In this document: positions 11,581 through 52,234 of the stretch, in pieces | How the letters are laid out: every line of letters starts with the position of its first letter | How positions within the stretch are numbered: the first letter of the stretch is position 1 | Assembly: GCA_964016885.1 (NCBI GenBank) | Contig: OZ024743.1 | Coordinates: 220,038,001-220,102,000 of the forward strand | Direction: 5' to 3' | Length of the DNA: 64,000 bases | Source: Eledone cirrhosa | Taxonomy: Eukaryota | Position numbers and translations under genes: made by a program | Notes under the pieces: model-generated | Databases searched by the model: none | What the model saw: only the letters and a program-made list of their open reading frames with translations | What the model was told of the DNA's origin: nothing

Positions 11581-11781
11581 ATATATTTCTTTATTAGCCA
11601 CAGGGGCACAAAAGAAGGGGACAAATACAAAGGGGGAAGTTTACATACAATAAAAACGTGTAAAATGTTATCACAGATGGAATTTAAAAGTTAGTCGATT
11701 TTCCCCAATAGAGGGAGACAGTTTATATGGGTAACACAGACCCCCGAAAAAAATGTGCAACCCTCATCTCCAGGAGTACGA
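11581..11781 (-). mobile_element. Tx1-like LINE, 3' UTR-only copy (subfamily of 47725-48561)
   Basis: Reverse complement matches about 48355-48555 including AATAAAGAAA-TATATCTATCT; degenerate GATA repeats flank the other side. Confidence 0.85.
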
Positions 11782-11833
11782 GATAGTTAGCTAGATACAT
11801 AGAAATAAAGATAGACAAATAGATAGATATATA

Positions 11834-12210
11834 AATAATTGTTTCTACTTTTGGCACAAGGCCAGCAATTCACCAGTGTATTACTGGTACTTTATTTTAT
11901 CGACGCCATAAGGATGAAAGGCAAAGTTAACCTCGGCGGGATTTGAACTCAGAATGGAAAGGGCCGTAACTCTCTGCGTCAAAGCATGGCGTCCGACCCT
12001 CTACCGATACTACCATATAAATAATTGTTTCTACTTTTGGCACGAGGCCAGCAATTACCCAGTACATTACTGGTATTTTATTTTATCGACCCCGTAAGGA
12101 TGAAAGGCAAAGTCAACCTCGGCGGGATTTGAACTCACATCGTAAAGGGACGTAACTATGCTGCAAAGCATGGCGTCCGACACTCTACCGATACTGCCAA
12201 TCCACATCCT
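11834..12210 (-). mobile_element. Two tandem tRNA-derived SINEs
   Basis: Minus strand has B box GAGTTCAAATCCC and central TTTGCCTTTCATCCTTA(C/T)GG..TCGATAAAATAAA domain (Meta-domain-like). The second copy has a 15-bp TSD TACCATATAAATAAT (12011-12025/12213-12227). Confidence 0.88.
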
Positions 12211-12465
12211 ATTACCATATAAATAATGTCTGCAGATATTTATAAATAACGTCTACGCAAATAGCTCATATTTTGATATATTAACGATTTACATTACTAA
12301 ATAACAATTCTACACACCCACACACCCACGCCCACGCACCAACACATACACGTATACATACACCCATATATATATATACATATATATATATATATACATA
12401 TATATATATATACATATATATATATATATATATATATATATATATATATATATATATATATATAT

Positions 12466-12818
12466 ATAAAGAAAAAGAGATGAAATCGAAAATGCAACTG
12501 AATTTTTTAAAAAATATATATATTTATTTGGTTCCTTTACCGGTTTCGCAGTTCTTCTGCTTTTCAAAAGGTGAGTTGAGATGGTGGGTCTGTGGTTTTT
12601 CTCACAGATGTGAGAAAAACCACAGACCCTCCATCTCAACTCACCTTTTGAAAAGCAGAAGAACTGCGAAACCCGTAAAGGAACCAAATAAATATATATA
12701 TATTTTTTTAAACAAGACTCCAGTTGCATTTTCGATTTCATCTCTTTTTCTTTATACTTTCACTCGTGTAGGACACCTCGGTTATTTTTCATTTTGTAAA
12801 AAAAACCTCACTTTCTAA
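12466..12818 (+). mobile_element. Fold-back PLE-tail-like insertion with hammerheads in both arms
   Basis: Inverted arms of about 140 bp around a 2-nt loop (12607-12608). HHR at 12644-12681 (+) and 12534-12571 (-). (TA)n flanks. Confidence 0.8.
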
Positions 12819-49088: not shown

Positions 49089-49452
49089 TATATATATATA
49101 TATATATATATATATATATATATATATATATATATATATATATATATATATGTAAGCAAAGAGATATTTAATTAGTTGGTAATTCAACAAATTTATTTAT
49201 AACAGATCCGAAGCACTCAACAGTTTACCTGGAGTATAATAAATATAATATATAATATAATATAATAAATATAGTTTCCATTTATTAATATTATTGATAT
49301 ATATATATATATATAACCAAAGATTCGTATGGTTCGTTGATTACTCGACGAATACAATATTACAATAGATTAGAAGCACTCAACAGGTGATTTTCTGCCA
49401 ATACTGGAATTGAATAATCAAACCCGTAGCGGTATGTCACATATCAAATCAT

Positions 49453-49517
49453 ATATTTTGTCTGATGAAAACGTACTTAAACACCATTGTACCTTTGAAA
49501 TATGTATAATAAAATAT
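49453..49517 (+). ncRNA. Hammerhead motif (family C)
   Basis: atattttgt-CTGATGA-AAAcGTAC...GTACcTTT-GAAA-TATGTAT-A-ataaaatat. Confidence 0.65.
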
Positions 49518-49606
49518 TTATTTTGATTATGCGAATATTTTTCATTTGTTAACATTTTGAATAATATATATATATATATACACCGTATATGTATATCTAT
49601 CTATCT

Positions 49607-52234
49607 GGGCCCGCGTGACAGAGGCCAACAGTGGAACTAAATCCACCATCCGGTCTTTGCGAGACCTGGATGGACGAGCGATTCTTGAGCCTAAGCAGAT
49701 GTGTGAGGCCTTTCAAAGGCACTTTGCCCGACTGTTCGGGAGGGGCGGGGAGCCGGTTGGGAACGTGGACTTCGGTCCATACCTCGACGGCCTGCCGCGC
49801 CTCTCGGACAGGGAGGCGAAGTCCTGCGAGGAGCCGATTTCGGCCGCTGAGATAGAGGACGTGCTGAGCCAATGCGGCAAACGCAAATCCCCGGGTCTCG
49901 ATGGTCTTCCTTACGAATTATATCTAGCTATGCCGGACTTGTTCCCCGATCTCCTCGAGGTGGTCTACTGCAACTGGCAACAGAACGGGAGAATTCCCTG
50001 TACTGTGACCAAGGGCGTAGTCACGCTAGTGAGGAAGGACGAGAACAAGGGGGACGAAATAAGTAACTTCAGGCCCATAACACTGCTAAATACAGAGTTA
50101 CAGATTTTGGCCAAGGTGCTAGCAAAGAGGTTGGCGCTTGTCGTGGGCAACCTGGTGGGAGATGCGCAGACATGCGCTATCCCGTCCAGGTCCATCCATG
50201 ACAACCTCCACCTCATGCGATACATCATAGAGAGGGTTGGGAACGAACCCGGCTTTGGTGGGGCTCTGATCAACTTGGATCAATCTAAGGCGTTCGATAG
50301 GGTCGACCATGGTTACCTGGATGCGGTGCTAGCGGCGGCAGGCTTCGGACCCGTTTTCAGGGGCTGGATCACTGCTATGCACAGCAGCCGCATCTGCTCT
50401 AGGGTCAAGGTGAACGGCTACCTCTCGGAGCCGTTCAAAATCGCGCGGTCCATCCGACAAGGGTGCCCTCTCTCCTCCCTTCTGTATGTGTTGACTCTCG
50501 AGCCACTACTGCGGAAGTTGGAGTTGTTGCAGGGCATCCCTTTGGAACCGGGATTGCGGAAAGCGGTGTCGGCCTACGCCGATGACGTGACAGTAATGGT
50601 GTCGACGGCCTCCGAAATCGAGGCGGTCGGCACCTTACTGGAGGAGTACGAAAAGTTCACAGGGGCTAAGCTGAACCGGGACAAGTCGATCGGTTTGCAA
50701 CTCGGCACGTGGAGGGGCAGACCGATGCCCTCCGATGGCGTCGTCGGACGCTGGACGGAGGGCCCGGTGAAGTTGCTCGGGGTCTGGTTCGGACCGGACC
50801 TCCAGGTGGAGAAAAACTGGGCGGAGGTTACGAACAGGGTGTTTGCACTGACCCAGAAGTGGGCCAGTTGCAAACTATCCCTGAAAGGTCGGGCGGAGGT
50901 GGCGAACACCTACATAGCGTCCGTCATCTACTACCGCATGACCGTAGTGCCCTGCCCAAGGGAAACCCTCACCAAGATGGAGCGCGCGCTCTTCCAATTC
51001 CTTTGGAAGAGGCGGGCTCCTATGGTGAGGAGATCCATCTGCTGTCAACACCCTTCGAAAGGAGGGCTGGGGATGCCGTGGCTAATGATGCGTAAACACG
51101 CATTAAGGCTACGGCACCTCTACGTATTCCTCACCGGACAACCGGTGTGGGCCTCGTTTGTGAGACGAACCTTTCCCAGACTCGTCTCACTCACCGAGCT
51201 GCAATCCTGGGTCAAGCAAAGACCGAGAAAACTGGGCGCCTGGCACACTGAGTGTGCCCAGGCGCTCACCGCCCTCTGGCAGGCGGATCCGGTTATCAGT
51301 GGAGACTCCACCGCAACATTCTATAGAGGGCTGGTACGCAGCAGGTGCGACGACGCCCTCGGAGAAGCCCTAGACATGGAGGAGGACGAACTGGCCAGCC
51401 TGTTCGGTAGGACATTCAGCCCGGGACCTATGGACAACTTCCAGAAGTCCCTGGCCTGGCAGTGCTACCGAGGGGCTTTACCCGTTCGAGAAAGGCTCTA
51501 CAGACACGGGCGCCCGGGTAGGGACCCCGCCAAAAAGATCTGTCCCAGATGCGTGTGCGACGAGGAAACCGTTGCACACGCATTGGTACATTGCTCGGGC
51601 GTAGCCGATCTGTGGGGCTATGTCGAACAACTGCTGTCAAGGGTGGGACCGATCCGGTTGACCACCGAGTCTATTGTAATGATCAAGCCGCCTCCCCCCT
51701 TCAAAGATGAAGCAGAGGCGGTGTTTCTGTGCGTAATAGCCATGGCGAAAGAGGTTGTATGGTGGACGCGTCTGAAAGGACTGAGGTCAGGCACCTTTCT
51801 CTCTGGCCAACAACTGGTCCGTTTCTTCCGATATCATTTCGGAAGAAGGATCAGGATGGAGAGAGAGGTGCTGCACCCCAGCCGTTTCTATGAAAGATGG
51901 GTGAAAGTGGCGAGAATGGCCCGTGTGAATGGGCCTTCACTCTACATCAGACTATAGGTGAGGAAGATGAAAGACCAAGGGAGCACCCCTTCTCTGTGCT
52001 CCTGAGGAGAAGGGTTGCACACTTTTTTCGGGGGTGTGTGCGACCCCCCAAGGCGCCTCCTCTCTATTGAGGATTTTGTTAAAAATTTTATTTTTTGTTA
52101 TATCTTATTTTATTTTTATATTTTGTTATTGCCTCCTCCTTATTGAGGACGCCTTTTTGTGTAAACTCCCCCCTTTGTACTTGTCCCACTTTTGATGCCC
52201 TAGTGGCAAATAAAAGAAACATATCTATCTATCT
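49607..52234 (+). mobile_element. Tx1/L1-clade LINE, 5'-truncated copy e, in (TATC)n
   Basis: Intact RT-to-3' ORF and AATAAA near the end; ATATCTATCTATCT on both sides (49593-49606, 52221-52234). Confidence 0.95.
49615..51957 (+). CDS. Partial ORF2 of Tx1-like LINE: reverse transcriptase plus C-terminal CCHC zinc-binding region (endonuclease lost by truncation)
   Basis: 780 uninterrupted codons with KSPGLDG, NFRPITLLN, LDQSKAFDRV, RQGCPLS, YADD, KGGLG and CPRC...ETVAHALVHC. Confidence 0.93.
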   Translation: MTEANSGTKSTIRSLRDLDGRAILEPKQMCEAFQRHFARLFGRGGEPVGNVDFGPYLDGLPRLSDREAKSCEEPISAAEIEDVLSQCGKRKSPGLDGLPYELYLAMPDLFPDLLEVVYCNWQQNGRIPCTVTKGVVTLVRKDENKGDEISNFRPITLLNTELQILAKVLAKRLALVVGNLVGDAQTCAIPSRSIHDNLHLMRYIIERVGNEPGFGGALINLDQSKAFDRVDHGYLDAVLAAAGFGPVFRGWITAMHSSRICSRVKVNGYLSEPFKIARSIRQGCPLSSLLYVLTLEPLLRKLELLQGIPLEPGLRKAVSAYADDVTVMVSTASEIEAVGTLLEEYEKFTGAKLNRDKSIGLQLGTWRGRPMPSDGVVGRWTEGPVKLLGVWFGPDLQVEKNWAEVTNRVFALTQKWASCKLSLKGRAEVANTYIASVIYYRMTVVPCPRETLTKMERALFQFLWKRRAPMVRRSICCQHPSKGGLGMPWLMMRKHALRLRHLYVFLTGQPVWASFVRRTFPRLVSLTELQSWVKQRPRKLGAWHTECAQALTALWQADPVISGDSTATFYRGLVRSRCDDALGEALDMEEDELASLFGRTFSPGPMDNFQKSLAWQCYRGALPVRERLYRHGRPGRDPAKKICPRCVCDEETVAHALVHCSGVADLWGYVEQLLSRVGPIRLTTESIVMIKPPPPFKDEAEAVFLCVIAMAKEVVWWTRLKGLRSGTFLSGQQLVRFFRYHFGRRIRMEREVLHPSRFYERWVKVARMARVNGPSLYIRL

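Follow-up and report, generated by a model that had tools for sequence, protein, structure and literature searches.

Two L1/Tx1-type LINE families of Eledone cirrhosa insert at a TATCTAT motif that is densest in (TATC)n microsatellites and is probably chosen by their endonuclease

The 64-kb window analyzed here (64,000 nucleotides of Eledone cirrhosa, GenBank assembly GCA_964016885.1, contig OZ024743.1, positions 220,038,001 to 220,102,000 of the forward strand) carries six copies of long interspersed nuclear elements (LINEs), which an initial annotation made from the letters alone had described as a Tx1-clade element targeting (TATC)n/(GATA)n microsatellites. Using pattern counts over the whole 3.0-Gb assembly and a sample of individual copies, we found that these elements belong to two sister families, family 1 and family 2, and that their target is a short motif with the core TAT[C/A]T and the best form TATC^TATCTAT, of which the microsatellite is the densest form. 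The strand- and register-specific preference for the repeat proposed in the annotation is present at both junctions, but the recognized unit is the short motif, which is also used singly in unique DNA. Junction sequences, target duplications, strand, register, domain layout and copy numbers were observed directly. On these sequences we consider it probable that, in both of these L1/Tx1-type families, the endonuclease leads the choice of TATC^TATCTAT and the RNA sets the register.

The 3' ends of the elements were located with an exact 26-nt pattern for family 1 and a 24-nt pattern for family 2, the reversed-pattern controls giving no hits. Family 1 has 3,479 exact 3' ends in the genome, of which 2,660 (76%) continue through two linker bases (NN) into TATCTAT, 287 into TATATAT and 4 into TCTCT. 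The corresponding numbers for family 2 are 6,155 ends, 5,087 (83%), 183 and 64. To judge these numbers we used a background sample of 60 stretches of 10 kb, taken at round-number positions on 20 contigs, in which TATCTAT was found 332 times and TATATAT 22,494 times (68-fold more commonly), with 24 TATC arrays as opposed to 979 TA arrays. Per site, the preference for TATCTAT over TATATAT is approximately 630-fold in family 1 and 1,900-fold in family 2. The target preference is real but leaky, and the leak into TATATAT differs between the families (8.2% of the ends in family 1 vs 3.0% in family 2), though both lead into the same repeat. The two subfamilies that had been noted to share a preference are accordingly two sister families with the same genome-wide bias, whereas the statement that no copy sits in (TA)n is valid for the window but not for the genome. 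The TATC preference held wherever the flanks were tabulated, that is, at the 3' ends of both families and at both junctions of the sampled family 1 copies. An A-rich tail was present behind none of the 256 3' ends examined (overlapping loci counted in), despite the AATAAA signal. We also considered (TC)n as a second target of family 2 and rejected it, because it accounts for only 64 of 6,155 ends, and the 20 that were inspected lie mostly at borders between TATC and TC tracts and have no duplication.

The detailed analysis of junctions covered 92 family 1 copies, all lying in the first 88 Mb of one contig. They were taken from a list of 100, of which the last six entries and two tandem neighbours are not included, and one sampled copy extended past its locus. 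In these 92 copies the terminal GAAA is followed by a 2-nt linker (CA in 60, TA in 17, CT in 14 and TC in 1) and then always by T, A and T, the next base being C, A or T in 79, 12 and 1 copies, respectively, and the one after it again T in all copies. Positions 3, 4, 5 and 7 past GAAA are invariant, namely T, A, T and T. Nineteen target duplications could be anchored in non-periodic sequence, and 16 of these are clean, have a length of 13–21 nt (a figure that may include as many as 4 nt shared with the element by chance) and start with the motif; L033, L066 and L039 matched poorly and were dropped ahead of this count. At the anchored sites the 2-nt linker is mostly unlike the target bases, and ahead of the duplication the sequence is mostly that of TATC (11–14 of 19 per position). 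Lone motifs in unique DNA, with duplications, are used by L050, L058, L083 and L107. For 30 off-consensus sites the 5' end lay within the locus in 12, and the duplications of L181, L185 and L187 lie in unique DNA and open with TATCT. The family 1 copies L165, L166 and L167, which have two different linkers among them, share one off-consensus flank within 100 kb, which suggests repeated insertion at one site of a tandem unit.

In LINE insertion generally, reverse transcription starts from the target 3' end that is set free when the endonuclease cuts one strand of the site. A target nick followed by priming from the freed 3' end is also how the process is outlined for elements of this kind in the literature (PMC4494074, as described there). 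We propose that the apurinic/apyrimidinic endonuclease (APE) encoded by open reading frame 2 (ORF2) would nick the bottom (GATA) strand at 5'-ATAGATA^GATA-3' or no more than a few bases from it, which corresponds to the left edge of the duplication to within about 3 bases. The RNA would read past AAUAAA into the parent's own downstream repeat. If a pairing step is involved, as it may be, the freed target end would likely pair with UAUCU of the RNA and would likely be used for priming there, and this would account for the missing poly(A), for a register that does not vary and for the inheritance of the 2-nt linker. A second nick 13–21 bp further would then give rise to the target duplication. 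The (TATC)n arrays would be preferred because they are dense and extended runs of the motif, and since each insertion leaves two usable sites, head-to-tail stacking would follow.

The endonuclease as the chooser of the site has to be weighed against a clearly less probable, but still serious, explanation in which the endonuclease would be loose and cut at TAT[C/A]T or at steps rich in A and T, and TATC would be favoured over TA mostly through pairing between the nicked strand and a UAUC repeat at the 3' end of the RNA. The core indeed accepts A, and the complete lack of poly(A) behind the AATAAA signal in the 256 ends, together with the exact register behind five heritable linkers (CA, TA, CT, TC and CC), speaks for a role of the RNA in either case. 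Furthermore, a hand tally of unique sites gave a T just ahead of the motif in 5 of 7 copies with a CT linker vs 0 of 9 with CA or TA, and pairing has a precedent in SART1Bm and R1Bm (PMC7265360, as described there). An RNA-led choice is nonetheless at odds with three observations that favour the endonuclease. The TA leak differs between families that share their downstream repeat, the TATC bases upstream of the duplication lie beyond the reach of primer pairing, and a change in the endonuclease tracks the target class in sister families, as the loop ahead of the YLDR motif reads NRSG in the TATC families and NRIG or NCIG in relatives at (ATT)n. These relatives (L059, L084, L100 and L154) also end in AATAAA-GAAA, lie at (ATT)n-type repeats and have 46–64% C-terminal identity. 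More tentatively, and with more doubt than confidence, one may imagine a two-key address in a radiation of young octopod LINEs, in which the loop would decide between repeat classes, NRSG giving TATC and NRIG/NCIG giving ATT, and the parental repeat carried by the RNA would set the register and replace poly(A). If this were true, natural swaps of the 5' module between subfamilies would represent exchangeable parts and provide a series for reading and retargeting the APE microsatellite code.

Several points weigh against an endonuclease-led choice of the motif. The 92 sampled copies are not a random draw. Neither TATCTAT nor TATATAT is present upstream of 22 of the 75 truncated copies, although some of these are internal deletions or have other 5' halves, with the true 5' end beyond reach. 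The upstream motif is likewise absent from 3 of 16 full-length copies, including L062, which is 99.8% identical to the full-length copy L047 and has about 20 TATC units on its 3' side only; a target deletion and an RNA-derived tail may both be compatible with this copy. At the sites examined no base of the 3' copy was clearly visible as RNA-templated, and the contigs of four sequencing runs over positions 49280–52640 contained no joint across the element that would represent an empty allele. Finally, only L059 and L154 combine the loop change and the (ATT)n end on a single locus, which amounts to one divergence event.

Some copies (L062, L028 and L073) carry the repeat downstream but not upstream and might be taken to indicate that (TATC)n is a tail made by the element after unspecific insertion, the upstream repeats being tails of neighbours or chance, the more so because another copy's 3' end lies within 200 nt upstream in 23 of 90 copies, as at 17956/19025. 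We regard this as very improbable. TATCTAT occurs within 30 nt upstream of 48 of the 75 truncated copies, and TATATAT alone in 5, whereas TATCTAT was present in only 193 of 39,960 background windows (0.5%), and the reverse-strand motif was found upstream of none of the 75. The repeat upstream of a truncated copy is target DNA, because a truncated complementary DNA cannot supply it. Duplications that extend on both sides from the motif into unique DNA largely refute a tail-only origin. The downstream run of perfect TATC bases reaches at least 12 in 39 copies and 7–11 in 33, and it stays below 7 in 20 of the 92, which also counts against such an origin. The (ATCT)n that the initial annotation had recorded behind the copies is mostly duplicated target DNA rather than tail. 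Growth of the arrays after insertion was considered separately and rejected, the length of the 3' run being unrelated to the identity with the reference copies (rho −0.03, n 92). Random insertion with later selection for copies in GATA repeats, or misassembly of the repeats, is hardly credible even in a genome rich in repeats and with the 92-bp duplication beside the 17158 copy taken into account, because retention cannot fix a register, the junctions keep a single strand and a base-exact register over thousands of ends, and the youngest copies too have the upstream motif (26 of 37 at ≥98% identity).

Full-length family 1 elements measure 5.7–5.8 kb, the 5' end being reached by 16 sampled copies. 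ORF2 is fully open in 7 of 80 long loci, and in L047 both frames are open. ORF1 of L047 (592 aa) contains a knuckle of the form C-x2-C-x4-H-x4-C at residues 320–336, which matches zf-CCHC with an expectation value (E) of 0.051, under the cut-off, and no Pfam match to Transposase_22 was obtained at E up to 1. Its ORF2 (1,145 aa) matches Exo_endo_phos (E 5e-8), RVT_1 (E 5e-26) and zf-RVT (E 4e-5, under the curated cut-off). Comparison of the endonuclease with solved structures gave weak matches, such as the L1 endonuclease variant 2v0s (E 0.037). Family 1 has two kinds of 5' half, alpha and beta, which are 62–80% identical in the 5' untranslated region (UTR) and ORF1, 84–94% in the endonuclease region and 98–100% in the reverse transcriptase (RT). 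The alpha and beta endonucleases are 88% identical and use the same target site. The APE catalytic motifs are kept in both types. Young alpha copies are 98–99% identical to old alpha copies in the endonuclease and 94% in the 3' half, which is 98% identical to that of beta (L041, L047, L051, L056, L062 and L097 vs L043, L055, L101 and L105 and vs L042 and L072). Judged by these identities, the young alpha subfamily is a recombinant of an alpha 5' half and a beta-like RT and 3' half, with the switch near the end of the endonuclease. L046 has an apparent third 5' half. A switch of the CT-linker lineage, which carries the beta endonuclease, to (TA)n was hinted at by 6 of 14 sampled copies and rejected, since the genome-wide ratio of TA to TATC ends is 41:266 as against 246:2,394 for the other linkers (odds ratio 1.5, p 0.03), a small shift. 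Both family 1 types have, in the 5' UTR, a conserved intron-like stretch of about 65 nt (approximately nt 28–93; GTAAGT ... TTTTGTAG), which is retained in all 16 full-length copies including L047 and L072, with the acceptor altered in one.

With respect to clade, the closest match among named proteins is one of Argonauta hians (67% identity over the RT region). In a tree of 39 RT stretches, without named Tx1 or vertebrate L1 rows and with L038up omitted as it had no RT match, the families group with Argonauta and unnamed proteins (support 98/94), adjoin turtle and fish elements (94/94), and are separate from plant L1. The turtle and fish elements have 34–42% identity. The closest solved relative is human L1 ORF2 (110 bits), with R2 at 72 bits. 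An ORF2 with APE, RT and a C-terminal zinc finger, and a target preference with short duplications, are Tx1-type features, while the 3' poly(A) tail and the Transposase_22-type ORF1 of vertebrate L1 are absent. Tx1 is described as having an ORF1 of its own that bears a CCHC knuckle in place of Transposase_22 (PMC5203782), and the knuckle-type ORF1 of the present families fits this description. By features and a tree without named members, these L1/Tx1-type LINEs are consistent with Tx1 membership.

Within the window, the six 5' truncation points that had been claimed could all be located, as six distinct points of the element. Each copy has TATC at its 5' junction and ends in AATAAA(A)GAAA followed by 2 nt and TATCTAT, and none of the six is hosted by (TA)n or (CA)n, the window containing 234 TA arrays vs 12 TATC arrays. 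The longest copy, of family 1, is a 5'-truncated 2.6-kb element on the plus strand at 49606..52219 (RT, zinc finger and 3' UTR, ending in AATAAAAGAAA). Its frame at 49606–51957 is open over 783 codons, slightly more than the 780 reported earlier, and matches RVT_1 with E 2.7e-26. This copy is 99.5% identical to L047 over 2,618 nt, which shows that amplification was recent. The annotation's view of a young LINE is supported. The 5' copy of its target duplication, (TATC)3 at 49594..49605 (+), matches the bases past the CA linker exactly over 12 nt, and the linker and the 3' copy occupy 52220..52234 (+). Another 5'-truncated family 1 copy, at 17158..17765 (+), has a 50-bp deletion in the 3' UTR and a TA linker, and is preceded by 92 bp of unique DNA and (TATC)10 at 17026..17157 (+). 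The same 92 bp are found on either side of this copy, at 17026–17117 and 17791–17882, which may reflect a tandem duplication of older date, or else a target duplication of unusual length together with an RNA-derived repeat. The next copy, also 5'-truncated and of family 1, at 17956..18941 (+; 99.7% to L047), has a TC linker and (TATC)18 before it at 17883–17954. Stacked downstream of it, with (TATC)n at 18944–19023 in between, is a family 1 copy of an older 3' variant at 19025..19702 (+; 96.8% to L047), followed by CA and (TATC)15. Family 2 is represented by a 5'-truncated copy at 47724..48548 (+), with (TATC)21 before it at 47642–47725 and a CA linker and TATCTATCTAT behind it, which is 97.7% identical to the L039 family 2 copy and 84% to family 1. 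The second family 2 copy, at 11586..11781, consists of 3' UTR only, has a TA linker and TATCTATCTAT, and is 100% identical to the L039 copy over 196 nt. It lies on the minus strand, so that the reported common orientation, for which no strand had been given, applies relative to the repeat. Its 5' side is degenerate, and the reported TATC at both junctions does not extend to its 3' flank, which is not (TATC)n but a TATCTAT-bearing minisatellite with 24.3 units of 24 bp at 10997..11580 (−).

Other features of the window include a repeat of about 190 bp with a long internal hairpin (23763–23952, 37324–37516, 37926–38128, 53050–53249, 33477–33608 and 59963–60092), which has (TA)n flanks on at least two copies and many copies in the background stretches, and is possibly a TA-seeking non-autonomous element. 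A repeat of about 185 bp resembling a short interspersed nuclear element is very abundant (52315–52500, 11834–12207, 41932–42116 and 60786–61131). A long minus-strand frame at 61355–62962, with SSFTVKDILDLP and DNPYTQWL motifs and no Pfam match, is presumably the first exon of an NK2 (Nkx2.2/vnd-like) homeobox gene. Broken minus-strand frames at 2458–3432 with YVGQTGRRLADRFTEH and HSIPYSQLLRIRRLCS, also without a Pfam match, we take to be a Penelope-like GIY-YIG element.

For microsatellite studies it follows that GATA markers in this animal group would often lie at LINE ends, at least 5 of the 24 background arrays being located behind a 3' end of this LINE group. An origin of most (TATC)n arrays from the elements themselves was rejected, as only about 5 of 24 are directly behind such an end.

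Microsatellite targeting as a habit is already known, and the GATA/TATCTAT target is apparently unpublished. No GATA-targeting LINE was found in the literature searched, Repbase, Dfam, supplements and subscription papers, which may already include the family, being outside the search, and the microsatellite targets named in the relevant part of one review (ACAY, AC, TC, TTC and TAA; PMC3812793) do not include GATA. The teleost Tx1-clade elements Kibi and Koshi, with (TC)n and (TTC)n targets (Kojima and Fujiwara 2004, as cited in PMC4494074 and PMC3812793), are similarly APE-type elements without long terminal repeats that are specific for a microsatellite with a pyrimidine-rich strand. Compared by description, they differ from the present families in target, here TATC^TATCTAT, and in host, here a mollusc; their (TC)n or (TTC)n target is not shared, given the 4 of 3,479 and 64 of 6,155 ends at TCTCT. 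Crocodilian Tx1 elements at (TTCC)n or (TTTC)n (Tx1-1_Crp, Tx1-5_Crp, Tx1-6_Crp, Tx1-1_Gav and Tx1-2/3/5/8_AMi; PMC4494074) are alike in that several sister families per genome prefer a tetranucleotide repeat. They differ in repeat and in their vertebrate hosts, and they are described there as preferences, whereas the present families provide a base-resolved motif and young copies whose frames are intact. Waldo, Mino and Dong, which we take to belong to the R1 and R4 clades, share the microsatellite as a safe multicopy target and use other repeats. These are ACAY, AC and TAA, respectively (PMC3812793, as listed there). SART1Bm and R1Bm combine a sequence-specific APE nick with a possible pairing step, in which RNA bases resembling the target would anneal to the nicked strand (PMC7265360), much as would be the case here; as described, they belong to the R1 clade and have telomeric or ribosomal DNA targets, and SART1Bm inserts with poly(A), whereas the present families insert without it. 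L1-Tx1 elements of the same class are present and recently active in octopus, with 13 families and 421 recent insertions in O. vulgaris (PMC13282606, PMC8967140); target sequences are unmentioned in the relevant parts of these reports, the libraries of which may include the present family unnamed. The choice of microsatellites by APE-type LINEs is described as poorly understood (PMC3812793). The present families offer a base-resolved motif from thousands of insertions, intact two-frame copies, two endonuclease types on one target and an (ATT)n sister lineage, and these features make the question of endonuclease versus RNA testable by ordinary assays. Compared with the known systems, these families add a new target and a set of elements well suited to testing, but no new principle.

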